Positions 2,648 to 63,876 of a DNA stretch of 64,000 nt are shown piece after piece. The notes beneath the pieces are model-generated. The model searched no databases. It saw only the letters and a program-made list of their open reading frames with translations, and was not told the DNA's origin. Position 1 is the first letter of the stretch; each line of letters begins with the position of its first letter. Source of the stretch: a virus; the IMG/VR virus record IMGVR_UViG_3300014501_000001, positions 1 through 64,000 of that record; one strand, written 5' to 3'. The translations under genes were made by a program, and so were the position numbers.

Positions 2648-3700
2648 TCACGCTGCAGCCTGCTTGCGCCACAGGTCTTGCAGGTAGGGCTTGAGCGGTT
2701 CCCAGGTGTCGTTCTGGCGGTCGGAGCAGACGTGCTCGTCGCCCAGCCCCTTATCCTCGGCCTCGGCGGCGCACGCCTCGATCCCGCGCCGTGACGTGGC
2801 GTTCCTGGCCTTCGCCGCGATCTGCTCGGCGCGCTCCCAGTCCTCAAGGCCGGGCTCGTCCGCTGGCACATCTGGCAGCGGTGGCGCGGGCTGCGCTACA
2901 GACTCAGCAGCAGGGACGGGCGGCGGCGCTGCGGCGATGGCCTTCGGCTGCTCTCCGGGAGCGGGCGGAAGCTGAGCCATGATCCCCCGGCCTTCGAGCG
3001 CCCCGGAGGCGATCTGGCGGAACGTGGCCAGCACTTCCAGCACGGGGACCGGGTAGTTGGTCGTCTTGCCCCCGGCGATCCGCTGCCGCTGCTCGATGCG
3101 CAGGATGGCGGGCAGCAGGACGCCCTTGTCGCGGGCTGCCTGCATGAGGATCGCCGCGTCGCCTATCTCGCTGGCGGCGTAGTAGCTGCCTGAATCCAGG
3201 CGGAAGATTCCCAGGCCGGGCAGGTCGGGGATCATGACCGAGATGCGGGTGACGAGCTTGCACGCCTGCGGCGGGTTCAGCTTGGCCAGCCCGGCGCGCT
3301 CCAAGGCGCAGCGCGCAACCTCGTCCTCGTCGCCAGGGTCAGCGGCGTGCGGGCACAGGCACGGACCATTGCTTATCTGCTCGTGCCGGGAATCGCAGCG
3401 CCTCTCCGCTCCCCCCTTGTTCCACTTCTCATACCATTGCGAGATCACCTGATCGCGCGGCGGCACGGTCACGCCGATGGCCGACTCTTTGGTGATGACC
3501 TCAAACTGCCCGCGCTGCCAGTCGCGCACTTCGCCGCCGTAAAGCTCGGCGATGGCGTCGGCAGCGACTCGCGACGCAGTAGTGAATCTGAAGGTGCTCA
3601 GCTTGTCGGGTCGCATCTTTCCGTTGGACGCCTGGACTAGCTGGCCAAGGCGTATCCGTCCGATCTGCTGCCCGCGTCTTTGGATATCCAAGATGGCCAT
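2648..3700 (-). CDS. Gp3-like recombination directionality factor / recombination protein
   Basis: Starts ILDIQRRGQQIGRIRLG, contains FRFTT, RRCD and GIFRLDSGSYYAA; adjacent to an exonuclease. Confidence 0.75.
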   Translation of the reverse strand: MAILDIQRRGQQIGRIRLGQLVQASNGKMRPDKLSTFRFTTASRVAADAIAELYGGEVRDWQRGQFEVITKESAIGVTVPPRDQVISQWYEKWNKGGAERRCDSRHEQISNGPCLCPHAADPGDEDEVARCALERAGLAKLNPPQACKLVTRISVMIPDLPGLGIFRLDSGSYYAASEIGDAAILMQAARDKGVLLPAILRIEQRQRIAGGKTTNYPVPVLEVLATFRQIASGALEGRGIMAQLPPAPGEQPKAIAAAPPPVPAAESVAQPAPPLPDVPADEPGLEDWERAEQIAAKARNATSRRGIEACAAEAEDKGLGDEHVCSDRQNDTWEPLKPYLQDLWRKQAAA

Positions 3701-4872
3701 TACGCCGCCTCCCCCGATGCGGTGGCTTCCCCGGCAAGGCTCAGCCCGTGATCGGCGAGCATTACCCGGATGGTTTCGATCAGCTTCGGCCCGACGCCCT
3801 TGACGGCGAGCACGTCGGCCACGGTGAACCGGGCCAGGTCTTCCAGTTCCGTCGCCGGCCCGAGTGCCTTGCCGAGCGGCGACAGTGCCCGGCCGTAGCC
3901 CTCGCCGGCCAGGTCGCAGATCCGCGGCCCCGGCATGGTGCCGTCAGCCCGCAGCGGGCGCACGGCGTAGCCCGGCTTGGCCTTCTCCACCTGCCGGTCC
4001 CGGTAGACCCCGGCGGCGTTCCGGAACCGCTCCCACGCAACCTCGTCCTTCGGCCCGGCCACCAGCATCAGCAGGTAGCCGTCCGGGTACTCGGGCCGCA
4101 GGTGCAGGACGGCTCCGGCGTCGGTGCGCGGCATCGGCTGCAGGTCGCCCATCGGCAGCAGGCATTCCGTCATCCGCCGGTACGCGGCAAGCTGCTCTTT
4201 CCAGGTGCCTTCCTGGTTGCGGCCCGTCTTGGTGTCCACGCAGACCGACACGACGCTGCCGGGGCAGGCGATGAGCCGGGAGCCATCCGGGTGAATCGCG
4301 TACCCGGTCAGGACGATGATCATGTCGAGCGTCCCGGCGATGCCGAGAGGCTGGTTGTAGACCGCCATCTCCGTCGCCTCGAAAACCGGGTTGAAGTGCG
4401 CGACGAAGCTCAGGAACCCCTCGATCATGAAGTCCGCGACATCCTCGACGGGCTCGCCGTCATACAGGGCGTCCCGCAGGTGATCCGGCAGCACGGGGAT
4501 GGCGATGTCGGCCCCGGTGCGGCCCGGCGACGCGGCCCAGAGGATCAGGGCCTCCTGCACGTCGTGCACGTAGGTCCCGGCGTCGGCCTTGACCGCGCGT
4601 AGCTGCTCGGCGGCGTCCTTCCCGAGGTCGATCGCGGCCTGGCGCCGCTCGTCCTGCGGTATCCGCTCATCCCGCAGCGTCTGCGCCAGTAGCGTCATGT
4701 GATCGACGGCCCACGCCATTGACGACGTGCCGTACCACTTCTTGATCCACGGCTTGCTGTTGGTCGCGCTGATGACCGTGGTGACGGAATCAAGCTGCTC
4801 GCCGGTCGGCGGGTACGGGTAAAACCTAGAGTCGTCCTCGCGCGTCGTCCGCACTTCCGTCGCGGCGGTCAT
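3700..4872 (-). CDS. PD-(D/E)XK (Cas4/lambda-exo-like) exonuclease with C-terminal alphaCTD-like HhH domain
   Basis: SVTTVI, GTYVH, IAGTLD...DTKTG...QLAAY; C-terminal VLAVKGVGPKLIETIRVMLADHGLSL. Confidence 0.8.
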   Translation of the reverse strand: MTAATEVRTTREDDSRFYPYPPTGEQLDSVTTVISATNSKPWIKKWYGTSSMAWAVDHMTLLAQTLRDERIPQDERRQAAIDLGKDAAEQLRAVKADAGTYVHDVQEALILWAASPGRTGADIAIPVLPDHLRDALYDGEPVEDVADFMIEGFLSFVAHFNPVFEATEMAVYNQPLGIAGTLDMIIVLTGYAIHPDGSRLIACPGSVVSVCVDTKTGRNQEGTWKEQLAAYRRMTECLLPMGDLQPMPRTDAGAVLHLRPEYPDGYLLMLVAGPKDEVAWERFRNAAGVYRDRQVEKAKPGYAVRPLRADGTMPGPRICDLAGEGYGRALSPLGKALGPATELEDLARFTVADVLAVKGVGPKLIETIRVMLADHGLSLAGEATASGEAA

Positions 4873-44795: not shown

Positions 44796-47700
44796 TTGGC
44801 ATCTCCGGCCGCCATTATCGCCGCAGCGAAAGCCGCGCGCAGTGCGCCTTCCGCAGGCCAGGGCGGCATGTCACCCGCTGTTGCCGCCATGAACGATAGC
44901 TGGGGCGGCATTTACGGGAACTTCCTTCCCCGGCCTGCCCAGGACTTCACGCAGGGCGCGTTCGGGCCGCTGACACCCCTCCCGCCGATGCCGGTCGATC
45001 AGCCGCCGCCGGGCTTTGACCGCCCGATGCCGCGACGCTGGCAACCGCCAATAGGCTGGAATTTGCCGCAGAGCCCTCCGGGTAGCGAGGGGCTGAAGCT
45101 CTGCGGCTTCGGCGAGTTGCGCACCCTGAGCCGGCTCTACAGTGTCGCCCGCGCGTGCATCCAGCTCTTGAAGTCCGAGATCCGCGCCCTGGAATGGGAC
45201 ATCGTGCCCACGAAGGACGCGGCGAAGGCCATGCGCGGCGACCACAAGGCCATGCGGGACTTCGGCGAGCGCCGGTCCGAGTGCATCCGGTTCTTCAAGA
45301 ACCCGGACCCGGAGTACGGGTCGTGGTCCTCGTGGCTGGACACGCTGCTGGAGGAAATCTACGCGATAGATGCGCTTAGCGTATTTTTGCGCCCTTCGCG
45401 TGTCCGGGGACGCGGGCTAATGGGATCGGACCTGTCAGCGCTTGAGCTGATAACAGGTGATTCGATTCGCCCGATGGTGGATCTTCATGGTTCACGCCCT
45501 ACGCCCCCATCTGTCGCTTTTCAGCAATTTTTGTATGGGGTGCCCCGCAGCGACCTCATGACCATCATGATGGGCGCCGACCTGACCGACGACCTCAAGG
45601 CCACCCAGGTCCATGAGTACCGGGGGGATCAGCTTCTGTACCTGCCTTACACAAGGCAGACGGACAGCCCCTATGGCTTCCCGCCGGCGGAGCAGGCGCT
45701 AGTCCCGGTGATGTCGGGGCTGTCCAAGCAGGGTTACCAGCTTGACTTCTTTCGTGAGGGTTCGGTACCTGCTGTATATATTTCGCCTGGGGATGCCGCT
45801 ATGACCGCATCTCAGGTGCGGGAGCTTCAGGATGCATTGAACGTTATTGCCGGAGATGTCGGGTTTAAGCATAAGGTCATAGTGCTGCCCCCCGGCAGTA
45901 AGCCGTACCCGCAGAAGGACCCGCAGCTAGCCGACCAGTTCGACATGGTCGTGTCTACCGAGGTCTGCATGGCCTATCAGGTGCAACCCACCGAACTTGG
46001 GCTAATGCCGCAAGTAGCCACCGTGCAAAGTCCGTCAAGTATGAACCAGGCAGCCAAGGCGGACGCCGCGCGCCACCAGCGCAAGTCCCTCGTCCCGATG
46101 CTCCAGTTCCTCAAGCAGGGCCTGCTGGACAAGGTCATCCAGGTTGCCTGCGGGCAGACGGACATGCAGTTCCTGTTCGAGGGCCTGGAAGAGGACGAGG
46201 ACGAGGTCTCCCTGACGGGCCTGCTGGGAACGCAGATCGGCACCGGCCTGCGGTCGGTGGACGAGGGCAGGGGCGTCCTGGGCCTGGACCCGTGGGGCCT
46301 GCCGGTCACCCAGGACCCGCTGTGGGCATCCGCGAACGGCGTCATGCTGCTGGGGTCGGTGGACCCGGCGACGGGCCAGCCGGGCGGCCAGCTGGCGGGG
46401 CTGCCGTCCGTGACGCAGCAGATGCAGGGCGCGCAGGGCGGTGCCGCAGGCTCGCCGGGCGCGAACGAGGGCCAGGTGAACGGCAAGCCCGCGCTCGCGC
46501 AGGGCCACCTGCCGGGCACCACGCATGTCCCCCCGGCTCAGCCGCAGCGGGACCCGACACCCTCGCATTCGGCGGCGATAGCGGGAGCGGCGGAAGCAGC
46601 GGCAGCGGTCTCGGGCTCGTCCTCGAAAGCGGCAACGGCAGGGCAGGACGGGCTGCACCGCTACGAGCCGTTCGTCCCCGGCGACCAGTCCGCGTGCGTG
46701 AAGTGCAGCCTGCCGCGCAGCTATGCCGCCCACGCAGTGACGGCGATCGGGTCGCGGATGATGCTGAAGGCCATCGCGGCACCCGTTGCGCCAAGGCCGC
46801 CGGATCATGTCCTCGCGGAGATCCTGACCGCCCCGGACGCTGCGTCGCTGAGCAAGGCCGCAGCAGCCGCGCTGATGCCTGCCCTGCCGGAAACCCCGGC
46901 CGTGTCGTCCAAGGCCGCGCTGAGCGAGCTGGATGCGCTGGGCAGGCACGTCCGCAAGGGCCGCGACCCCGCAACCTGGCAGCCGGTCCACATCCCCGGT
47001 CACGTCATGGCCATGATCTGCGAGGACGTGACGAAGGGCATAGCCATTGCGGAAGTGCTGACGGCGGCGGCTGACCAGATCCCAAAAGCCTCAGCCGCCA
47101 AGAGCGGCCCTAGCAGCGGTCAGCGGCGGCAGGCGTGGCTTGCCTGGGAGCATGACCTCCAGCTGGCGGCGAAGTACGAGAAGCAGATCGGGGCCGCTTT
47201 CGCGTCGGTGATGGCCGAGGCGGGCAGGCTGTTCGCCGCGTTCCTCGCCGGGACCCTCGCGGTCACTGCGGCGGTTCTGGCGTCGATGATCGCGGACCTG
47301 ATCCGGCAGCGGCTCGCGCTGATCCTGGCTCCCTTGCACGCGGAGGGCCGGGAACTGGGCGCGGCGGCGGCCATGCAGGCAGTAGGGGCGTCCGCACGGC
47401 AGCGGCAGGGGATAGCGGCGGCGCAGCAGGCGGACACGTCCCAGATCGCCCAGCAGGCCGCGGTAAGGCAGATGGCCGGCACCGGGCTCGCCGGGTTCAC
47501 CGTCGCGCTCATGAAGCTGCTCCTCGGCGGCGCGGTCACCGTTGGGGCGCTGCTGGCGCTGCTGGATGCGTTCCTTAACGCTGAGAACCGCGCCGGGCTG
47601 ATCGCCCTGACGGAGATCGAGAAGGCCATCGCGGACGGGGCCTTCGGGGTCTACACCGAGCTAGGCGTGAGTTACGTCCGCTGGCACACCCGTAACGACT

Positions 47701-49337
47701 CAAGGGTCTGCGCCCGCTGCATGGCCAACCAGGACGCCGGCCCGGTTCCGCTGGGGAGCCTGTTCCCCGGCGGGGTCGCCCAGCCGTGCCAGCATCCAGG
47801 ATGTCGTTGCTGGCTGGCTCCGAGCGATCCGCCGAAGCAGGGTGTTGCGCCTCCCGCGCCGGGGACTGCGAAGGCGGCCGGGGCTCCGCTGCTCTACCAA
47901 GGACCCGTCCATGGGGGCCCATTGAGCTACCCGCCAACCATGGATGGCGAGGCGGGACTCGAACCCGCAACCTACGGAACCCCGGCCGCAGTGCACCTTA
48001 CCAAGGCCGACAAACCCTGGAAGCACCCGGACACGTCTCTCCCTGTCGCTGAGCAGGTCTACGCGCAACTGCTGGAGGACTACCCCGCCTCGGCGCTGAC
48101 CTGGGTAAAGGACGCTACCTGGACCGGCCCGCAAGAGGTCCCGCTCAGCGCGATCGAGTACACCCCGGACAAGTGGCAGGCCGGCCACGAGGACGCCAAG
48201 GTCGATCGCTTCAAGGCCAAGATCGAGCGCCGGCAGGCGGCAGGCAAGCCGGTCAAGCCGGCCGTCCTCATCGACCGGCCGGACACGAAGCCGGGAACGC
48301 ACCTGATCGTGATCGACGGCCACCACCGCACGATGGCCTTCCATGAACTGAATCGTCCCGTCGTCGCCTACGTCGGCAAGGTCACCACAGCAGGAGCGAG
48401 TGCGGCAGAGGAAACTCACGCCTCGCAGTTCAGCGACCGGAAGCCGGGCGCGGGCGACGACGGGCGCACCATGAAGAACTTCACGGCGGCGAACCTCGGC
48501 GACGGCTCGGTGCACGGCCTCGCGCCGTATGACCTGCGGGGCCAGGACGACGGCTGCGGCTGCTGCGCGGAGTGCAGCGGCCCGTCGTGCGGCTGCTGCC
48601 CGGACTGCGATGCGGCCAAGGCGGCACGCGGCTACAGCCTGAACCCGCGCTCGGGCATGATCTCCCTGGACCTGCCGGAAGGGCTGATCGAGCCCCTGCC
48701 AGGCGGGGTCACGGATCACCATGTGACCGTGGTTTACCTCGGGCCTGACGTGGATGACGACGCATTCAGCGCCGCGTGCGGCATGGCACGCGAGGTCGCG
48801 GCGGCCACGCAGCCGCTGTCCGGGACCATCGGCGGCATCGGCTCGTTCCCTGCCGGTGATGACGGGGTTCCGGTCTGGGCCGGCGTGAACCTGCCCGGTG
48901 CCGAGACACTGCACGAGGCGCTGGCTGAACTTCAGTCACCGGACGCGAAGGCCCGCGAGCACGGCTACAAGCCGCACTGCACCATCGCGTACCTCGAAGA
49001 GGGCGACCCGCTGCCGGATCCGCTGCCCCACATGCCGGTGACATTCACTCACCTGTCGGTACATCGCGGCGAGGACGTGAAGCGGTTCTCGTTCGGTGGC
49101 GGCTCAGCGGAGAAGTCAGGCAAGACCAGCGCCGAGATCCTCCGCGAGTACTGGACCCATGAAGGGCACCCCGGCCCCACGCAGTACGCCCTGGAAGAGA
49201 AGATCCGCTGGGGCGAGAAAGACGACTGGTACCGCTGCGTGGACGAGCTAACGCCCTACATCGGCGAGGGTGCGCGTGGCTATTGCACGCTCAGGCACCA
49301 CGAGGTCCTGGGTGCCTGGCCCGGACATCCGGTCTGA
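44796..49337 (+). CDS. Portal polyprotein: portal + Mu gpF-like head domain + ParB/Srx-like + 2H phosphoesterase + C-terminal KIRWG domain
   Basis: Portal motifs SPYGFPPAEQ, FFREGSVP, VDEGRGVLGL; gpF WHTRNDSRVCARC...QHPGCRCW; VIDGHHR; HVTV...HCTI. Confidence 0.85.
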   Translation: MASPAAIIAAAKAARSAPSAGQGGMSPAVAAMNDSWGGIYGNFLPRPAQDFTQGAFGPLTPLPPMPVDQPPPGFDRPMPRRWQPPIGWNLPQSPPGSEGLKLCGFGELRTLSRLYSVARACIQLLKSEIRALEWDIVPTKDAAKAMRGDHKAMRDFGERRSECIRFFKNPDPEYGSWSSWLDTLLEEIYAIDALSVFLRPSRVRGRGLMGSDLSALELITGDSIRPMVDLHGSRPTPPSVAFQQFLYGVPRSDLMTIMMGADLTDDLKATQVHEYRGDQLLYLPYTRQTDSPYGFPPAEQALVPVMSGLSKQGYQLDFFREGSVPAVYISPGDAAMTASQVRELQDALNVIAGDVGFKHKVIVLPPGSKPYPQKDPQLADQFDMVVSTEVCMAYQVQPTELGLMPQVATVQSPSSMNQAAKADAARHQRKSLVPMLQFLKQGLLDKVIQVACGQTDMQFLFEGLEEDEDEVSLTGLLGTQIGTGLRSVDEGRGVLGLDPWGLPVTQDPLWASANGVMLLGSVDPATGQPGGQLAGLPSVTQQMQGAQGGAAGSPGANEGQVNGKPALAQGHLPGTTHVPPAQPQRDPTPSHSAAIAGAAEAAAAVSGSSSKAATAGQDGLHRYEPFVPGDQSACVKCSLPRSYAAHAVTAIGSRMMLKAIAAPVAPRPPDHVLAEILTAPDAASLSKAAAAALMPALPETPAVSSKAALSELDALGRHVRKGRDPATWQPVHIPGHVMAMICEDVTKGIAIAEVLTAAADQIPKASAAKSGPSSGQRRQAWLAWEHDLQLAAKYEKQIGAAFASVMAEAGRLFAAFLAGTLAVTAAVLASMIADLIRQRLALILAPLHAEGRELGAAAAMQAVGASARQRQGIAAAQQADTSQIAQQAAVRQMAGTGLAGFTVALMKLLLGGAVTVGALLALLDAFLNAENRAGLIALTEIEKAIADGAFGVYTELGVSYVRWHTRNDSRVCARCMANQDAGPVPLGSLFPGGVAQPCQHPGCRCWLAPSDPPKQGVAPPAPGTAKAAGAPLLYQGPVHGGPLSYPPTMDGEAGLEPATYGTPAAVHLTKADKPWKHPDTSLPVAEQVYAQLLEDYPASALTWVKDATWTGPQEVPLSAIEYTPDKWQAGHEDAKVDRFKAKIERRQAAGKPVKPAVLIDRPDTKPGTHLIVIDGHHRTMAFHELNRPVVAYVGKVTTAGASAAEETHASQFSDRKPGAGDDGRTMKNFTAANLGDGSVHGLAPYDLRGQDDGCGCCAECSGPSCGCCPDCDAAKAARGYSLNPRSGMISLDLPEGLIEPLPGGVTDHHVTVVYLGPDVDDDAFSAACGMAREVAAATQPLSGTIGGIGSFPAGDDGVPVWAGVNLPGAETLHEALAELQSPDAKAREHGYKPHCTIAYLEEGDPLPDPLPHMPVTFTHLSVHRGEDVKRFSFGGGSAEKSGKTSAEILREYWTHEGHPGPTQYALEEKIRWGEKDDWYRCVDELTPYIGEGARGYCTLRHHEVLGAWPGHPV
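47874..47989 (-). ncRNA. Circularly permuted tRNA-like (YrlA-like topology) element antisense within the portal gene
   Basis: 16-bp closing stem; T arm GCGGG-UUCGAGU-CCCGC; acceptor CUCGCCA/UGGCGGG closed by UCCAUGGU; D arm UAGCUCA...UGGUAGAGCA. Confidence 0.75.
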
Positions 49338-53708: not shown

Positions 53709-56399
53709 ATGGCAGCCACACTGACCGCCGGCAACGACCTTGCTTTCGCGAGTTTTCCCATCGAAAAGTGGGAGGACGGCCCGGACGGCTCGGTCTACGT
53801 CTACGGGAAGGCATCGACGCCCGAGATCGACACGGACGATCAGGTGGTCTCGCCCGATTTCTCGGGCCCGGCTCTCAAGCAGTGGATGGAAGCGCCCGCG
53901 CTCCGGGTGAACCATCAGGCCCGCCGCGACCCGGCCGGATCGGGCATTCACGTCGAGATTGACCGGGATGGCGACGGCGCCCACTGGGTGAAGTCGATCG
54001 TGGCCGAGAAGGAAGCGGTCCGGCTGGTCAAGGGCGGCCACCTGCGCGCCTACTCCATCGGCATCGCCCGGCCCGTCATCGAGCGCGACATGACCGGGAA
54101 GGCGCGCGGCGGCATCATCACGGGCGGCGTCATCGCCGAGGTCAGCCTGGTCGATTCGCCCGCGAACAGGTCATGTTTCCTAGAACTGGTCAAAGCGGAC
54201 AAGAACGGCGACGCGCAGTGGTCCGGCAAGGTGTTCGGCGCTGACGACTTCCTCGCCAAGGACGCCGCCCCGGACCTGATCAAGGGCACCGTCTCCTTCT
54301 CCCCTGATGACCTCGCCAAGCTTCTCCAGCACCGCAAGGTCGCCGAGGAGCGCGAAGCGGAAGTCACCAAGGCGGCGGCGGGAGCCGACGAGGCCGGCGG
54401 CGACAACGCTGCGGCTGACCAGGAGGACGAGTCCGGCAACGCCGACATGGAGAACGCCGACGACACGGACGCGCCGAAGGCAGCGGAGCCGGACGCGGCA
54501 GAGGTTGCCGTGGCCGATGCGGTGAAGGCGGTAGAGGTCGCCGTCTACAAGCGGGACGTCTCCGCAGCGGAGCGCAAGGAACTCGCCGGCAAGGGCCACG
54601 CGCTCAAGGACGGTTCCTACCCGATCGCCAACGCCGAGGATCTGGGCAACGCGGCGATCCTGGCCCGCTCCGGTCACGGTGACGTGGCAGCCGCGAAGGC
54701 GCTGATCGCCAAGCGCGCGAGTGAACTGGGCGTGGCCAACCCGCTCGACGACGACGCGGAGAAGGCCGCCACGGCCGATGACGCGCCCGCCGTTCCTGTC
54801 GCTGACAAGGCCGCGAAGCCGAAGATGGCGTGCCCGTCGTGCGGCAAGAAGTCCGGGGCGAAGAACCCGTTCTGCTTCAAGTGCGGCAAGAAGATGACCC
54901 CGGACACCGATGACAAGGCCGACAAGGCCGCATCCCCGACGCCCGCCGATGGCGTGAAGGACGCGCCGCCGGCCGAGCCCGTCACCCCGCACCGGGAGCC
55001 TGACGGGGTGGCGATGGAACAGCTCGAGGACGACGCGCACCTGGAGGGCGGCAACCCGGACGAGGGCGGCGAGCGCGCGGCCGAGGCCGCCGTAGCGCCT
55101 CCCGCAGCCGAGGACGCCCAGGTGGGCAAGACGGCCGGCTCCGAGGCCGCGTCGTGGCGGATCAGGGAGGCCGGCGCCTCGTGGGGCGAGGGGATCCTGC
55201 ATGATTTCCTGTGCCCCGCGTTCTCCCCGGACGCGACCGCGAAGTCCTACCCCGGCCAGACCCTCGCCGCCGTCGCGGACCCGGCGGAATGGCAGTCGAA
55301 GGCACTGTCGGCCGCGATCGACGCCCCGATCCCGGAGGCGGGCAAGGCGCAGCGCCGCTGGCAGGATGCCCTGACCATCGCCGGCACGGACGCCGAGACG
55401 GTCACGGGCCTGCGCTGGGAGGCGCACAAGGCGTTCGCCGACGCGAACCCCGGCCCCTCCGCGTACCCGACTCCGGGCGAGTTGCGCCCGCAGTCGTTCC
55501 GGCGCCCGATCCTCACTGACGGGCAGTCCCCGAGCCCGGCGGCGTCCGGCGCCAGCCCGTCGCACATCACGGCCGATCACATCTCGGCTACGGACTTCAC
55601 CCGCGGCCCGCTCACCGGAGGCCAGGAAGCCTCCAGCGAGCCAGAGGGAGACAACGGCTCCCAGGGCGTCCCGTCAGTGCCGGGGAAGCCGCAGCGGACC
55701 TTCTACCGCAACACGAGCCGCGACGGCGCCAGGGCCGCGATGGCGTCCATGCACGACCACATCGCGGGAACGTTCCCCGACCTGTGCCCCATGCACGGGC
55801 CCGGGATGGGCGGCCAGCCGCCGGCGGGCGCGCGTCCCGTCCCGGTGCCGGGAACCCGGAAGGCAGAGGACGAGCCGGAGGTTGTCAAGGCAGCGGCGCC
55901 GGCAGGCAAGCCGGCCAAGGTGGCGTGCCCGTGCGGCAAGAAGGCCCGTCCCGGCAAGTTCTGCCCCGGCTGCGGCGAGAAGATGCCGATGAAGGGCGGC
56001 ATGGCTGCCAAGGCAGCGGACCCGCTGCCCGCCGTCGCCGCGCTCCCGGTCCCGTCGCTGGACGCCGCGGCGCTCCAGGCAGCCGTCGAGAAGGCCATCG
56101 CCCCTCTCGCCGCCAGGCTTGAGCAGCAGGGCGATCTCATCGACCAGATGGCCTCTGCCCCTGACCCCCGCTATGCCCCGTTCAAGGCCGTGGCTGCCGG
56201 CGGGGTGCTCCCGAAGGCCCTCCAGCCGGCCCCGGCGGTACCTGAGCGGAGCGCCGTGGAGAAGGCAGCCAGCAACGTGCAGGAAACCCTCCTGCGCGAC
56301 CTCCAGTACCAGGCCCGCAACGACCCGGACCCCGGCAGGCGGGAAGTCGCCTGGCAGGAGCTGACCAGGCTGCTGAACGTCGCGGGCGGCACGCGGTAG
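53709..56399 (+). CDS. Prohead protease fused to scaffold with accessory domains and Zn ribbons
   Basis: VYGKAST..IDTDDQVV, RVNH, AYSIG, EVSLVDSPAN; DGSYPI domain; CPSCG/CPCG. Confidence 0.85.
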   Translation: MAATLTAGNDLAFASFPIEKWEDGPDGSVYVYGKASTPEIDTDDQVVSPDFSGPALKQWMEAPALRVNHQARRDPAGSGIHVEIDRDGDGAHWVKSIVAEKEAVRLVKGGHLRAYSIGIARPVIERDMTGKARGGIITGGVIAEVSLVDSPANRSCFLELVKADKNGDAQWSGKVFGADDFLAKDAAPDLIKGTVSFSPDDLAKLLQHRKVAEEREAEVTKAAAGADEAGGDNAAADQEDESGNADMENADDTDAPKAAEPDAAEVAVADAVKAVEVAVYKRDVSAAERKELAGKGHALKDGSYPIANAEDLGNAAILARSGHGDVAAAKALIAKRASELGVANPLDDDAEKAATADDAPAVPVADKAAKPKMACPSCGKKSGAKNPFCFKCGKKMTPDTDDKADKAASPTPADGVKDAPPAEPVTPHREPDGVAMEQLEDDAHLEGGNPDEGGERAAEAAVAPPAAEDAQVGKTAGSEAASWRIREAGASWGEGILHDFLCPAFSPDATAKSYPGQTLAAVADPAEWQSKALSAAIDAPIPEAGKAQRRWQDALTIAGTDAETVTGLRWEAHKAFADANPGPSAYPTPGELRPQSFRRPILTDGQSPSPAASGASPSHITADHISATDFTRGPLTGGQEASSEPEGDNGSQGVPSVPGKPQRTFYRNTSRDGARAAMASMHDHIAGTFPDLCPMHGPGMGGQPPAGARPVPVPGTRKAEDEPEVVKAAAPAGKPAKVACPCGKKARPGKFCPGCGEKMPMKGGMAAKAADPLPAVAALPVPSLDAAALQAAVEKAIAPLAARLEQQGDLIDQMASAPDPRYAPFKAVAAGGVLPKALQPAPAVPERSAVEKAASNVQETLLRDLQYQARNDPDPGRREVAWQELTRLLNVAGGTR

Positions 56400-57073: not shown

Positions 57074-57772
57074 ATGGCGGACATTCTCGAAGCAACGATC
57101 GCCCCGGCTGACCAGCTCAGCCCCACGGGCGCAGAGGTCGCCGGCAACGTCGCGCAGTTCTCCCGCACGGGGGAAATGCTGAAGGCCCGGCTCCCGAACC
57201 TCGTCAAGGGAGCAGGCTACGCCGGGACCGGCAACGCCCCCCTCACCGACGAGATCCAGATCATGACCAAGGCATCCCAGGCCGCTATCGACCTGCGGCA
57301 GGCAACCTGGGACGGCATCACCGACAAGCCGGCCGTGGTCAAGGGCATGAACCAGGGGTTCCTGAACCAGTTCGGGTACCTGAAGACGGCCCTGACGGCC
57401 CCGTCGCTGATGGACACCCTCGCGGGTGTCTTCGGGCAGATGCCCGGCGGCAGCGAGGCGTTCAAGAATTTCACGGCCGGCAATCTCGGGGTGGGGTCGG
57501 TGTACGGTTTGGTGCCGTTTGACCTCATGCGACCGAGTCGTCTGATCTACCCGGTATATACCGTTTTCCGCAACAAATTCCCACGGCCCCAGGGCCAGGG
57601 CACGAGCGCGCAGGAACGGGTCATCACCGGCATCTCTGGCAGCCAGACCGGCGGCCAGGGTGTCCTCGACGTGTCCATCACCGAGCTGGTTCAGAGCGGC
57701 GGTACGTTCTCGAACTGGCCCCTCAACCTGCCGCCTTCGGGCTCGCAGACTGAGGTCTTCCTCAATGTGCCT
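57074..57772 (+). CDS. Major capsid protein, exon 1
   Basis: Position after protease/scaffold; FDLMRPSRLIYPVYTVFRNKFPR; ends ...LNVP at the P1 U.G pair. Confidence 0.8.
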
Positions 57773-59120
57773 TGCATCCTGTAGGGCCGCCGCGCCGCGA
57801 GGCGCACGCGATAACCGCGAGAATTGCTGGAAAGCCCGTACCACATGCACATGCCACAACGTGGGGCGAAAGCCCGAGCGTGATGGCCTGAAAAATGTGC
57901 ATTAGGGGTAATCAGCAGCCGAGCCCGCCTGGACCGCGACACGCGGCACCGACGGGATGGTTCAGAGACTATGCACGCGGGTTCTGGTAATCTTTAACGA
58001 TGGAGATTAATAACGATGACTGGCAGATAATGGCCGGTCAGGAGCGGGAAGAGTTCATTCGGCGCTACGTGGCTGGCGAGGCCCTGACATCCCTCGCCAG
58101 GGAGTATCACCACGGGCCTGCCACGCTGAGGGCAATCCTCGTCAGCGTGGGGGTGCCAGTCCGGACAAGGCCCGGATACGCCAAGGGCAGGAAGTGGTCA
58201 GAAGCGCAGCGTGAAGCTCACAGGCGCACAACTAGCACCCCTGAGCACAGGCAGAAGATGCGCGCGATCATGCTGAAACGCCTCCCGGTCATGCGCGGAG
58301 CGGCGACGAACTCTCCGATCGAGCGCCGGATGCAAGATGCGCTCATGGCGGTCGGCATCGGCTTCACAACGCAGTCTGTCCTGCTGGACCGCTACCTGGT
58401 GGACATCGAGATCCACCAGGCACCCATCGTGATTGAGGCTGACGGCGCGCAGCACACACTGCGCATCCAGAAGGCCAAGGACGCCGAGCGCGACACGGCT
58501 CTCACTGCCGCCGGGTACCGGGTTTTCCGGTTCACGGGCAGCGAGATCAATGCCGACGCCGTGCTGTGTGTCCGGCGTGTTATCGACGCTTGCTTCCTGG
58601 TTCCCGACCAGGAGCCCATCTATGAAATCCGCACGGCTTTCACTGGCGAACTCCACCCGCTCTGGAAGGGCGGCAAGCGGGAGTTCACCTGCGAGATCTG
58701 CGGGGTCGTGTTCATGGCTCAGCCTGCGCACCGCAAGGGGCCGCACATCTACTGCAGCATGCAGTGCAATGGTGCAGCCAAGCGCGGCAAGACGGCGAGT
58801 GCTGAGACCCGTGCCAAGATCAGCGCCGCGAATAGGGGCAAGGAGCGCAAGCCCCCGCCACCGTTCACGGCCGAGCATCGCGCCAAGATCAGCGCAGGGC
58901 TTAAGGGCAGGCCAAAGACTGCGGAGCACGCCGCCAAGGTTGGTGCAGCGCAGGCTGGCAGGCCAAAGTCCGCCGAGACTCGGGCAAAGATCAGCGAAAC
59001 GCTCAAGCGTCGAAACGCAAACCAGAACAAGATAGAGTCCGCTCTGCATGGAGACATGCAGAGGCCGGCAGAAATGACCGGCCCCGCCACCCTGTTCTGA
59101 GGGCGGCGAGTAACAACAGG
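57773..59120 (+). ncRNA. Group I intron 1 carrying a homing endonuclease in L8
   Basis: IGS GUAGGGC pairs with GCCU|UAC; P GAAUUGCUGGAA, Q AAUCAGCAG, R GUUCAGAGACUA, S AAGAUAGAGUCC; P8 GUUCUGGU/ACCAGAAC; terminal G. Confidence 0.92.
58000..59100 (+). CDS. Intron-encoded Vsr-like/DUF559 (EDxHD-type) endonuclease with NUMOD3-like repeats
   Basis: SPIE, YLVDI, IEADGAQH, DAERD, GYRVFRF; SAETRAKIS repeats. Confidence 0.85.
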   Translation: MEINNDDWQIMAGQEREEFIRRYVAGEALTSLAREYHHGPATLRAILVSVGVPVRTRPGYAKGRKWSEAQREAHRRTTSTPEHRQKMRAIMLKRLPVMRGAATNSPIERRMQDALMAVGIGFTTQSVLLDRYLVDIEIHQAPIVIEADGAQHTLRIQKAKDAERDTALTAAGYRVFRFTGSEINADAVLCVRRVIDACFLVPDQEPIYEIRTAFTGELHPLWKGGKREFTCEICGVVFMAQPAHRKGPHIYCSMQCNGAAKRGKTASAETRAKISAANRGKERKPPPPFTAEHRAKISAGLKGRPKTAEHAAKVGAAQAGRPKSAETRAKISETLKRRNANQNKIESALHGDMQRPAEMTGPATLF

Positions 59121-59180
59121 TACCGTTTCTTCGGCATCAGCGAGCAGCTTTCCTGGCTCGCGCAGTTCGCAGGACAGGGT
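59121..59180 (+). CDS. Major capsid protein, exon 2 (20 codons)
   Basis: YRFFGISEQLSWLAQFAGQG; in frame after both splices. Confidence 0.85.
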
Positions 59181-59455
59181 CAACTTAGAGGCCCCCTCGC
59201 AGGGTGACCTGCGAGTTCACTCGGCACCGTAACGGTGAACCCCGCCAAGCCAAGGGGAATACCGTGGAAACCTCGCACTACAGGGTTCCGTAGAGAGCAA
59301 GCGTGCCGCGCCTGTGTCATGGGACCTGCCCCGAGTGCATCAGGGGCAGCGGACCGCAGGCGAAGTTGTGCTCCGGGCTCGCGCGATGGAAAAGCGCGAG
59401 AGGCGTCCAGAAATGAGGCGCCCGGCCGTCCCCAGTGGCGGCAGGTAACAGTTCG
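59181..59455 (+). ncRNA. Group I intron 2, ORF-less, 275 nt
   Basis: IGS GAGGCCC pairs with GGGU|UUC; P3 CGGCAC/GUGCCG; AACGGUGAA, AAUACCGUGG, CGUAGAGAGCA, AAGUUGUGCUCC; terminal G. Confidence 0.85.
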
Positions 59456-60511
59456 TTCGAGGACATTGCCGGCCTGGCCAACCTGATCATGCTTCAGGAG
59501 GCCATGCTCGGAGAGGAATATCAGTTCATAGCGGGCACTTCCGCTCCGCTGGCCGTTCCCGCAGCACCGACCTGCACTGTCCGCACCGCCGGCTCCAATG
59601 AGACGGCGCTCAACACGAACATCACCGCGGTCAAGGTGGCCGCGACCAACTACTTCGGCTCGACCGCCGTCTCGGCGGCCTCGTCCACGTTCGCCGTGGC
59701 GTCCGGCCAGGTCGTGGATGTCACGATCGCCCCGGTCGCGGGCACGATGACCTACTCGATCTACGCCTTCACGTCCGGTTCCAGCTACTACCTGCTGGCA
59801 TCGGGCGTCGGCGGCCAGAAGTACACCCTGCAGGGCTTCTCGTCCCTGCCGACCGCCGTCGTCCCCCCGGCTGCCGACACCGGCACCGGGAAGAACACCC
59901 GGATGGAAGGCGTCATCCCGACGCTCACCGGGGCGTCGGCCGCTGCGGGGGTCTACCCCAGCGGCTGGCAGGGCGGCTACGTCAACCAGTCCGTGGGAAC
60001 CCACCTGTCCTACAACGCCATCTACACGGCGCTGGACAGCCTGTGGGAGTCCAACTCCAACTCACCGGGCGCATTCAAGGCGGACCCGCAGGAGATCGTC
60101 GGCGACGGCGGCGACATCATGCGCCTGTCCAACGACGTGATCTCGGCGGGGACGGCGACGAACTACCGCCTGTTCCTGGAGCAGCAGGAAGTCGGGGGAA
60201 TGCGCGTCGGCGGCGCCGTCAGCGAGTTCCAGAACCCGATCACCCGGTCCATCCTCAAGCTGGTCGTCCACCCCTGGTTCACGCAGGGCACGGCGGCCTT
60301 CATGACCTACCAGCCGCCGATGACCTACTCCCAGATCAGCAATGCCTGGGAAGCCCGAATGGTGCAAGATTACGCCAGTATTGCCTGGCCTGTCATAGAT
60401 GCGACCTTTAGGTTCTCAATCTTCTGGTATGGGGCCTTGATCGCGAATGCGCCATTCTTCTCCGGTTTGCTCCAGGGGCTCCAGATTAGTGACGTTACGC
60501 CCTACTCCTGA
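59456..60511 (+). CDS. Major capsid protein, exon 3
   Basis: FEDIAGLANL...EE; FN3-like insertion; LVVHPWFTQGT; YGAL...P. Confidence 0.8.
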   Translation, partial: FEDIAGLANLIMLQEAMLGEEYQFIAGTSAPLAVPAAPTCTVRTAGSNETALNTNITAVKVAATNYFGSTAVSAASSTFAVASGQVVDVTIAPVAGTMTYSIYAFTSGSSYYLLASGVGGQKYTLQGFSSLPTAVVPPAADTGTGKNTRMEGVIPTLTGASAAAGVYPSGWQGGYVNQSVGTHLSYNAIYTALDSLWESNSNSPGAFKADPQEIVGDGGDIMRLSNDVISAGTATNYRLFLEQQEVGGMRVGGAVSEFQNPITRSILKLVVHPWFTQGTAAFMTYQPPMTYSQISNAWEARMVQDYASIAWPVIDATFRFSIFWYGALIANAPFFSGLLQGLQISDVTPYS

Positions 60512-61556: not shown

Positions 61557-62696
61557 ATTCGCATACTCGCCCACAGTAACGCGCCATGGGAGAAATCGGG
61601 CTACGGTACGCAAATCGCCCTGCTTGCCCAGCGGCTGCCGGAACTCGGCCACGAGGTCGTGCTGTCCGCGTTCCACGGGCTCGGCGGATCGCCGCTGGCG
61701 TGGAACGGGATCACGGTCCTGCCCGGCGCGTTCCCCGGTGACCCGTACGGCGCCGGGATCCTGCCGCAGCACCGGGCACGGCACGGCGCGGACCTGATCA
61801 TCACCCTGATGGACGTGTGGGTGCTGGACCCGGCACCGCTGAAAGGCCAGCCCCTCGCCTGCTGGATGCCATCCGACTCCGAGCCGCTCTCGTCAGTTGA
61901 CAGGACGTTCCTGGACGCCTCCGGGGCCATCCCGATCGCGATGTCACGGTCAGGGGAGGCACGGCTCAAGGATGCGGGCTACTCGCCGCTCTACGTGCCG
62001 CACGGCATAGATGTCCAGTTGTTCTCGCCGTCGCCTATCCGGGAGGAGACCAGGGAGATCCTGGAGGCCACCGGGAAGTTCACGATCGGCATCAACGCGA
62101 ACAACAAGGACTCCTTCCGCAAGGGCATGTACGAGCAGATGGCCGCGTTCGCGAGGCTGCACGCGGCGCACCCGGACACGCTGCTGCTGATCCACGGCCT
62201 GGTCCACGAGGTCGGCTCGGTGGACCTGGCGCAGGTGACCCGCAACCTGGGGATTCAGGAGGCGGTGAAGTTCTGCGGGCAGTACGAGTACCTGACCGGG
62301 ATGATCACCAGCCAGCAGGTCGCGAACTGGTACGGGGCACTCGACCTGTACTCGCAGGCGAGCTTTGGCGAGGGCTTCGGGATCACGGCGCTGGAAGCGC
62401 AAGCGTGCGGCGTGCCTGTGGTCACAACCGACGCGGGGGCGATGGCGGAGATGTGCGGCGGCGGCTGGAAGGTCGCCGGGGAGAAGTTCTGGAACCCGGT
62501 GCACAACGCCTGCTGGACCCGCCCGTCGATCGCCGGCATCCACCGGGCGTATGAGCAGGCGTACCAGCGGGGCAAGGCGTACGAGGCCAAGAAGGCTAAG
62601 TGCGTCCCGTTCGCCGCGCAGTACGACGCTGACCGGGTGCTGAAAGAGCACTGGGCTCCCGCGCTCGCCGAGCTTGAGCGGAGGATCACGGCGTGA
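61557..62696 (+). CDS. GT4-family glycosyltransferase with probable ATT start
   Basis: (M)RILAHSNAPWEKSGYGTQ; VPHGID; EGFGITALEAQACGVPVV. Confidence 0.85.
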   Translation: MRILAHSNAPWEKSGYGTQIALLAQRLPELGHEVVLSAFHGLGGSPLAWNGITVLPGAFPGDPYGAGILPQHRARHGADLIITLMDVWVLDPAPLKGQPLACWMPSDSEPLSSVDRTFLDASGAIPIAMSRSGEARLKDAGYSPLYVPHGIDVQLFSPSPIREETREILEATGKFTIGINANNKDSFRKGMYEQMAAFARLHAAHPDTLLLIHGLVHEVGSVDLAQVTRNLGIQEAVKFCGQYEYLTGMITSQQVANWYGALDLYSQASFGEGFGITALEAQACGVPVVTTDAGAMAEMCGGGWKVAGEKFWNPVHNACWTRPSIAGIHRAYEQAYQRGKAYEAKKAKCVPFAAQYDADRVLKEHWAPALAELERRITA

Positions 62697-62988
62697 GTGA
62701 GCGCGAACCCGAGGTCCACCTGCTCAAGGAGGACAGCGCCAAGCCGGGATTGCGGCACCTGCCCGAGGAACACGCGCCCGTTACCACGGTCGCCGCTGAT
62801 CACCCTGTCGCCGTCCGGGAGCCGGGACGCTGCCAGGCATGCCATGCGTTCGCCCTGCTTGAGCGGCACTGGCCGGGCGGGATCCTGCTGCCGGGCCGCC
62901 ACGTTGAGATCTGCGCTGCGTGCCGGGGTCTGGGTGACGAGGAGATCATGCGGAGGCTGCCGGACTGGAGACGGGACGGGGCGAGCAC

Positions 62989-63876
62989 ATGAGGGTTCTC
63001 GTAACTGGGGGCGGGGGCTTCATCGGCCGCCACGCCTGTGACGCGCTGACGGCGGCCGGCCATTCGCCGCTGGTGCTCGACCGGCGGCGGGACCGCAACT
63101 GCGGGCATGACGTGATCCTCGGCGATGTCCGGGACGCGACGGCGGTCACGGAGGCGGTCGCGCACTGCGAGGGCGTCATCCACCTCGCCGGGGTGCTCGG
63201 GACGGCGGAGACGATCAGCAACCCGCGGCCGGCGGCGGAGGTCAACATCCTCGGCGGCCTGAACGTGGCCGAGGCATGCGCGCAGTACGGGGTGCCGCTG
63301 GTGAACATCGCGGTGGGGAACTGGTTCGAGTACAGCACCTACTCGGTCACCAAGAGCACCGTGGAGAGGTTCTGCGGGATGTACCGGCGGTACCGGGGCC
63401 TGCCCGTCGCGTCGGTGCGGGCCTTCAACGCCTACGGGCCGGGCCAGTCCGTCGCGGCGCCTTACGGCACGTCGAGGGTGCGGAAGATCATCCCGTCGTT
63501 CATCATGCGGGCACTGCACGGCGAGGCCATCGAGGTCTACGGCGACGGCTCCCAGGTGATGGACATGGTGTACGTCACCGATGTCGCCGCCGCGCTCGTC
63601 ACCGCACTGGAGGGCCTCGCGGCCGGGTGCGTGCCGGATGAGCCACTGGAGGCGGGCACCGGGCGGGCGACGACCGTGGCGCAGATCGCGGAGATGACCC
63701 GCGCCGAGGTGGAACGCCAGACCGGGGTCGCGGGCAAGGTGGGCTTCCTGCCGATGCGGCCAGGCGAGACCCCCGGCAGCGTCGTCCTCGCCAGCGCGGG
63801 CCTGCCCGGCTGCGTCCCGCTCGAGGACGGGCTCGCCCGGACGGTCACGCATTACCGGGAGGCGGCCGGGTGCTGA
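62989..63876 (+). CDS. NAD-dependent epimerase/dehydratase
   Basis: VTGGGGFIG, YSVTK, FNAYGPGQ, YGDGSQVMDMVYV. Confidence 0.9.
   Translation: MRVLVTGGGGFIGRHACDALTAAGHSPLVLDRRRDRNCGHDVILGDVRDATAVTEAVAHCEGVIHLAGVLGTAETISNPRPAAEVNILGGLNVAEACAQYGVPLVNIAVGNWFEYSTYSVTKSTVERFCGMYRRYRGLPVASVRAFNAYGPGQSVAAPYGTSRVRKIIPSFIMRALHGEAIEVYGDGSQVMDMVYVTDVAAALVTALEGLAAGCVPDEPLEAGTGRATTVAQIAEMTRAEVERQTGVAGKVGFLPMRPGETPGSVVLASAGLPGCVPLEDGLARTVTHYREAAGC

Follow-up and report, generated by a model that had tools for sequence, protein, structure and literature searches.

An HK97-fold capsid gene of a high-GC phage genome, with two predicted group I introns around a 60-nt micro-exon

In LittleE, a mycobacteriophage of Cluster J, the capsid gene contains an intron whose splicing was shown by reverse transcription PCR (RT-PCR) and N-terminal sequencing (Pope et al. 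2013, PMC3706429). Splicing of a capsid-gene intron is known to be efficient in an actinophage (PMC3706429), and the lactococcal phage Tuc2009 has a group I intron in its capsid gene (PMC3706429). Very short exons between tandem introns have also been described. In the accounts given by PMC10136302 and PMC11878797, orf142, the tail tube gene of Staphylococcus phage Twort, has three group I introns with an exon of 23 nucleotides (nt) between introns 2 and 3 (Landthaler & Shub 1999). PMC10136302 also summarises the 23S rRNA gene of Coxiella burnetii, in which an exon of 34 nt lies between two group I introns that differ in subgroup, and the Bastillevirinae are reported to have up to three introns per gene, with 47% exon skipping (PMC11878797). 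Here we describe a capsid gene at 57074-60511 of the IMG/VR record IMGVR_UViG_3300014501_000001 that appears to be split by two group I introns around an exon of 60 nt. The window, the stretch of DNA that we analysed, is the first 64 kb of this 113,096-bp record, a metagenome assembly with direct terminal repeats that is rated complete; the GC content of the genome is 68.3%.

Among the open reading frames (ORFs) listed for the plus strand, those at 57074-57784 (236 aa) and 59435-60511 (358 aa) are fragments of a capsid gene, and between them is an ORF of 366 aa (58000-59100). A preliminary description of this DNA had proposed that splicing at 57772^59121 and 59180^59456 gives one continuous frame of 604 aa, and that standard annotation would report two fragments and miss the exon between them. 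The ORF list does show those two fragments. What the analysis shows is the exon structure, both ribozyme folds, the domains of the nuclease and the capsid fold; the parts of the locus are arranged as follows.

57074-57772, plus strand: capsid exon 1, 233 codons, ending ...FLNVP, last base U57772; matches homolog residues 1-234.
57773-59120, plus strand: intron 1, predicted group I, 1348 nt, last base G59120.
59121-59180, plus strand: micro-exon, 60 nt, YRFFGISEQLSWLAQFAGQG, last base U59180; matches homolog residues 235-254 with 0 gaps.
59181-59455, plus strand: intron 2, predicted group I, 275 nt, without an ORF, last base G59455.
59456-60511, plus strand: capsid exon 3, 351 codons and a stop, beginning FEDIAGLAN...; matches homolog residues 255-604.

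Joining the three exons produces a coding sequence of 1815 nt (604 aa) with a single terminal stop, which reads ...FLNVP / YRFFGISEQLSWLAQFAGQG / FEDIAGLAN... across the joins. Exon 3 as query found 706 relatives, and most of the best of these are 599-615 aa long and cover the whole query. Aligned separately, the three exons tile nine uninterrupted homologs of 602-610 aa with zero gap columns at both joins, and the 20-residue segment encoded by the micro-exon, YRFFG(L/I)(T/S)E(S/Q)LSWLAQFAGQG, is nearly invariant among these nine. The joined protein is 68-72% identical to six full-length uninterrupted homologs, with no gap columns over residues 226-262. We also enumerated all donor and acceptor pairs within +-60 nt, with T as the last exon base and G as the last intron base, and the top-scoring in-frame joins were exactly 57772^59121 and 59180^59456. 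The continuous 604-aa frame is thus borne out by both the gapless alignment and the enumeration of junctions. Homologs without the YRFFG...AGQG segment had been named as evidence that would speak against splicing; the alignment to intron-free homologs found the segment present in them.

Profile searches with the protein sequence against Pfam, NCBIfam and the PDB did not recognise the capsid protein. It matches PHROG 13692, a family without an assigned function. Searching 50,697 phage records by tblastn with both large exons gave no match, which suggests that the gene is related neither to Cluster J nor to any other isolated phage at that sensitivity. We gathered diverse relatives (747 at E<=0.001; 69 aligned) and built an AlphaFold2 model of the homolog P0007, 72% identical to the joined protein, as a stand-in (mean predicted local distance difference test score, pLDDT, 79.7). 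Foldseek comparison of this model with the PDB returned the capsids of Pa223, SU10, SPO1, D3, HK97 and T5 (probability 1.00, E 1e-12 to 1e-5), and the matches listed are almost exclusively phage HK97-fold capsids, plus two HK97-fold encapsulin shells. Judged by the model, the gene product has the HK97 major-capsid fold, in which the micro-exon would supply a beta-strand and a short helix immediately before the spine helix. A profile search found no second capsid gene in the whole 113-kb genome. As this is the only capsid gene, a functional capsid protein would need both inserts to be removed. The original identification of a major capsid gene therefore stands, on the HK97-fold matches of a 72%-identical homolog and on there being no other capsid gene in the genome.

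Intron 1 is, on its predicted fold and its relatives, a group I intron. We read the coordinates of its helices (P1 to P9.2) from the sequence.

57769-75/57781-87, plus strand: intron 1 P1, 7 bp, with U57772.G57784.
57792-96/57801-05, plus strand: intron 1 P2, GCGA loop.
57815-19/57976-80, plus strand: intron 1 P3.
57825-30/57912-17, plus strand: intron 1 P4.
57965,57967-70/59036-40, plus strand: intron 1 P7.
57981-87/59022-28, plus strand: intron 1 P8, GUUCUGG/CCAGAAC.
59042-50/59055-63, plus strand: intron 1 P9, GAGA loop.
59064-68/59078-82, plus strand: intron 1 P9.1, loop CAGAAAUGA.
59085-93/59100-08, plus strand: intron 1 P9.2.
58000-59100, plus strand: ORF of 366 aa predicted to encode a homing endonuclease, located in the loop of intron 1 P8 and starting 13 nt after the P8 5' strand.

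In P1, GCCU of the exon and UGC of the intron pair with GUAGGGC, which yields the U57772.G57784 pair, and the GUA of the guide can form a P10 of 3 bp with the UAC that opens the micro-exon. The classical P, Q, R and S elements, found by eye, are AAUUGCUGGAAAGC, AAUCAGCAGC, GGUUCAGAGACUAU and AAGAUAGAGUCC. The reading frame of exon 1 meets a TAG at 57782-84, three codons into the intron.

The preliminary description had suggested a search with Infernal and group I intron models. With Rfam RF00028, the search found intron 1 in halves and intron 2 not at all at E<=10. The 5' half, 57763-58010, scored 22.9 bits (E 5e-4, model positions 1-188, 3'-truncated) and the 3' end, 58985-59061, scored 19.5 bits (E 0.003, model positions 179-253, 5'-truncated); both are below the gathering score of 50 bits. 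Rfam gave no match at the gathering score over the whole window, and only chance matches at E<=10 on 57600-59600; intron 1 came into view on narrower slices. Intron 1 has no single-piece RF00028 match because the 1.1-kb ORF in the loop of P8 (L8) splits it. The ribozyme parts are 70-83% identical to inserts in homologous capsid genes (blastn E 3e-58, nhmmer E 4e-18). ORF-less relatives in four loci (L047, L039, L028 and L050) score 51-66 bits on RF00028, and three more score 48-50 bits. Without its ORF body, intron 1 is collinear with its relatives from P1 to the terminal G. It has the sequences of P4, P6, P7, P3', P8, J8/7 and P9-P9.2 in common with the introns of the four high-scoring loci, but unlike them bears the 1.1-kb ORF in L8, and RF00028 matches its halves only.

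The last ~80 nt of this ORF cross P8 3', J8/7, P7 3', P9 and P9.1, and its stop lies in the P9.2 loop. The product matches Pfam DUF559 (restriction-endonuclease-like; 3e-14, 53.2 bits against a cut-off of 20.6) and NUMOD3 repeats (1e-7, 32.2 bits against a cut-off of 20.4), has a zinc-ribbon-like CxxC...CxxxC stretch and matches PHROG homing-endonuclease families. These domains point to a homing endonuclease of the DUF559 / PD-(D/E)xK type with NUMOD3. Searching the PDB by sequence gave one weak match, 3hrl (endonuclease-like, DUF559; E 0.012). We did not assign the protein to the EDxHD family (I-Bth0305I type), as the local motif is E-A-D-G-A-Q-H, not EDxHD, and the PDB results contain 3hrl only. 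As the preliminary description had it, one intron has a nuclease and the other, being ORF-less, does not.

Ten further capsid loci have homologs of the nuclease, which lie inside introns that bear an ORF. The closest homolog, that of locus L044, is 55% identical and sits at the same site as intron 1, between homolog residues 234 and 235. The 5' half of the ribozyme in that intron (L044:2807-4000) is unlike that of intron 1, and its P2 is capped by GUGA as in the lineage of intron 2. This mix of a similar nuclease and a different ribozyme half may be a sign that introns swap nuclease genes or ribozyme modules.

Intron 2 is predicted to be a group I intron with a complete fold from P1 to P9.2.

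59177-81/59190-94, plus strand: intron 2 P1, 5 bp, with U59180.G59190.
59198-203/59208-13, plus strand: intron 2 P2, GUGA loop.
59222-27/59303-08, plus strand: intron 2 P3.
59232-36/59261-65, plus strand: intron 2 P4.
59240-43/59254-57, plus strand: intron 2 P5.
59266-73/59282-89, plus strand: intron 2 P6.
59295-99/59369-73, plus strand: intron 2 P7.
59309-16/59355-62, plus strand: intron 2 P8.
59378-84/59394-400, plus strand: intron 2 P9.
59402-07/59417-22, plus strand: intron 2 P9.1, loop CAGAAAUGA.
59425-30/59437-42, plus strand: intron 2 P9.2.

Here an in-frame TGA lies at 59205-07, eight codons into the intron. Canonical pairs make up 65 of the 66 in the window sequence. Across six members of the lineage, 376 of 379 helix cells are canonical (99.2%), and compensatory changes on both sides are seen at 42 of 65 positions; when the 3' partners were slid by 1-3 nt as a control, pairing fell to 34-42%. 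Pairs were counted on our own segmentation by segment lengths, and the MAFFT alignment sets P4'-P6 of the window one column off register. RNAalifold, given five members, independently recovered P2, P4, P5, P6, P7, P8, P9, P9.1 and P9.2, with 39 of 76 pairs compensatory. Our segmentation adds P1 and P3, and P3 crosses P7 to form the group I pseudoknot. In place of P3, RNAalifold paired CUGU in J3/4 with ACAG in the intron tail. We rejected this, as P3 has compensatory changes and makes the canonical pseudoknot, but CUGU/ACAG may be a tertiary contact.

In the six lineage members, which occupy four insertion sites, the guide tracks the exon and the U.G pair is always kept (GGGU/GCCC at 254/255, CCAU/GUGG at 575/576, CCCU/GGGG near 163). 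J4/5 GAA and J5/4 AAU are invariant across the lineage. P7 reads GAGCA/UGCUC in intron 2 and GACUG/CAGUC in the lineage, the three differences each being a compensatory pair. Although their cores belong to different lineages, introns 1 and 2 have in common a near-identical 3' module, with the same P9.1 loop and a GUAACA tail. P2, P9.1 and P9.2 are present in the introns of this locus, and P7.1/P7.2 are absent. The claim of two group I introns is upheld for intron 1 by the RF00028 halves and full-length homology, and for intron 2 by the covariation-supported fold. The further claim that P1/P10 pairing independently predicts both junctions held in part: the P1 U.G pair and the terminal G are found at both, but P10 is ~3 bp and adds little.

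Profile searches found relatives of intron 2 in L058 and L052 at 575/576, in L049 near 163 and, in part, in L043. A metagenome scan for the intron tail followed by exon 3 gave three true loci out of 114, namely L097, which is duplicated in L173, and L169, which is partial at a contig edge. L097, from a soil metagenome, has an intron of this lineage at the identical 254/255 site. The corresponding pattern search of viral contigs gave four chance matches, none with a capsid gene. Introns 1 and 2 are separable, as L097 lacks an intron at 234/235 and L044 lacks one at 254/255. The lineage includes compact introns of ~275-290 nt, at L058:4933-5221, L052:6645-6934, L049:~3722-3996, and L097:1799-2075 and 3004-3266. 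RF00028 had no match to the lineage loci covered by the Rfam searches, L058, L052 and L049 among them. Rfam-based screens would miss this lineage, and RF00028 is best treated as an operational rather than a defining criterion.

Taken together, we put the probability at about 0.88 that this is the sole HK97-fold capsid gene of the genome, and that its precursor transcript contains two group I ribozymes and is spliced to an mRNA for 604 aa. We infer the following splicing chemistry, homing and co-conversion. Each ribozyme of the precursor transcript would fold separately, and its internal guide would pair with the end of the upstream exon, placing a U.G wobble at the site of splicing. As is standard for group I introns, external guanosine would cut after U57772 and U59180, and the freed exon ends would attack after G59120 and G59455 to join exon 1, the micro-exon and exon 3. 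The stop codons three and eight codons into the introns would halt any ribosomes entering unspliced RNA. As each virion needs hundreds of capsid subunits, both ribozymes would have to splice efficiently and in the right order. Intron 1 is probably mobile: during co-infection its nuclease would presumably cleave, near codon 234/235, the capsid alleles of relatives that lack the intron, and repair would then copy the intron. Intron 2, which has no nuclease, would persist by clean splicing; a neighbouring intron that does have one may help it to spread through co-conversion.

Several observations weigh against this. The genome was assembled from a metagenome and is not that of an isolate. RF00028 gives neither intron a one-piece match at the gathering score, and on a 321-nt slice with intron 2 it found nothing even at E<=10. 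One A.G mismatch (A57971/G59035) is present in P7 of intron 1. In intron 2, J8/7 is AAGUUG and differs from that of its relatives (AUGAGA-like), and P1 is only 5 bp; P10 is ~3 bp at each junction.

It is conceivable, but unlikely, that splicing also gives an exon-skipped product, with exon 1 joined in frame to exon 3 (584 aa), which would be either a by-product or a means of regulating capsid output. An exon of 60 nt can be skipped with the frame kept, and the near-identical 3' modules of the two introns, with their common CAGAAAUGA loop and GUAACA tail, would favour such a product. There is precedent in PMC10136302 and PMC11878797, which document skipping of exons of 23 and 34 nt between group I introns and, in phage SIOphi, skipping in 47% of transcripts; skipping is reported for Twort orf142 and a Bastillevirinae polymerase gene. 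However, the P1 guides and the cores of the two introns differ, and differences of this kind suppress skipping in engineered tandem introns (PMC10136302). The segment that would be lost is nearly invariant and is modelled as a core strand beside the spine helix, so the skipped protein would be unlikely to assemble.

Less likely still, one or both inserts are relics that have lost splicing, which would make the capsid gene a pseudogene and the genome defective or non-viable. This would fit with the invisibility of intron 2 to RF00028, with a P7 and J8/7 that are unusual among its relatives, and with the P7 mismatch of intron 1. Yet each of the three differences in P7 of intron 2 is compensatory and the intron keeps 65 of its 66 pairs intact, which points to selection on the structure. 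All three exons are open, 68-72% identical to homologs and retain the conserved residues, and the genome is complete, with terminal repeats and no spare capsid gene.

An assembly artefact (a chimeric contig) or another kind of element is highly improbable: the record is a metagenome assembly, but both inserts have complete ribozyme folds with guides that match the flanking exons, and at least 15 independent contigs hold related genes that are split, the same two sites included. Among other elements, an intein is ruled out by the in-frame stops in both inserts, and there are no group II matches (Rfam on the window) and no reverse transcriptase (Pfam). We rejected intein, group II intron and translational bypass on the in-frame stops, the missing reverse transcriptase and the ribozyme folds.

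The spliced gene that we favour belongs to a family in which such interruptions are common. Among 57 related capsid loci taken from viral contigs, 13-15, about a quarter, are split. Insertion sites fall at about residues 138/139, 143, 153-163, 234/235, ~239, 254/255, 261/262, 264, 273/274, 563 and 575/576, and the wider capsid family has at least 10 sites and up to five introns per gene. The gene with five, L052 (2077-7022), has two micro-exons of ~39 and ~36 nt, and others are found in L058 (27 nt), L047 (~21 nt) and L049 (30 nt). Within the genome studied here, both intron families are confined to the capsid gene. The protein fragments P0026, P0079 and P0001 look like products of intron-split alleles.

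More speculatively, the whole capsid family may be an arena of intron competition, with at least 10 sites, at least two ribozyme lineages that swap the P9-P9.2 module, one diversifying DUF559 family and recurrent micro-exons of 21-60 nt, where nuclease-less introns may spread by co-conversion and tandem introns may give exon-skipped or delayed capsid mRNA. We regard this broad picture as doubtful. If it were true, such mRNA would have a bearing on how co-infections turn out.

A portal domain lies upstream in the ORF 44796-49337, which places the capsid gene in the head module after the portal. This ORF is very long (1513 aa) and has a C-terminal 2'-5' RNA ligase / LigT-like phosphoesterase domain (Pfam 4.6e-12), and within it 48324-48539 matches residues 83-151 of the capsid profile, the N-terminal helical domain (E 7e-7). 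Between the portal and capsid genes, the ORF 53709-56399 (896 aa) matches PHROG 21715 in its N-terminal region; it also has a faint match to head maturation protease and a pair of zinc-ribbon motifs, and could be a fusion of protease and scaffold. Immediately after the capsid gene, 61659-63876 encodes a GT4 glycosyltransferase and an NAD-dependent epimerase/dehydratase, which suggests virion glycosylation.

Gene callers fragment the capsid gene and miss its 60-nt exon, and the public protein collection holds many fragments of the family, so capsid-based classification and annotation of phages are distorted. The locus adds a second, unrelated spliced capsid gene in high-GC phages and a whole lineage of group I introns that escapes the RF00028 model. 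The family is well suited to comparative study of intron homing, site switching and micro-exon formation.

The testable elements of the earlier interpretation held, but the arrangement is less unusual than it implied, as capsid-gene introns and tandem introns around exons of 23-34 nt have been published (PMC3706429, PMC10136302). Like this phage, LittleE has a high GC content, a genome of ~110 kb and an HK97-fold capsid gene with a probable group I intron; that intron carries a homing endonuclease, and the exon ends in U and the intron in G. It differs in that its single intron has a LAGLIDADG-like nuclease encoded on the opposite strand, whereas here there are two introns and a DUF559/NUMOD3 nuclease on the same strand, and no relation between the two capsids was detectable (tblastn, 50,697 phage records). 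[quoted passage not shown] Its introns 2 and 3 are highly similar, of subgroup IA2, and show exon skipping, while the introns here have cores of different lineages with only the P9-P9.2 module in common and flank an exon of 60 nt. The introns of Coxiella 23S are dissimilar group I introns beside a very short exon as they are here, but in a bacterial rRNA gene rather than a protein-coding gene of a phage. LittleE and Twort orf142 are known cases of, respectively, an intron in a capsid gene and a micro-exon between tandem group I introns; what might be new is the intron lineage invisible to Rfam and the density of introns in this capsid family.

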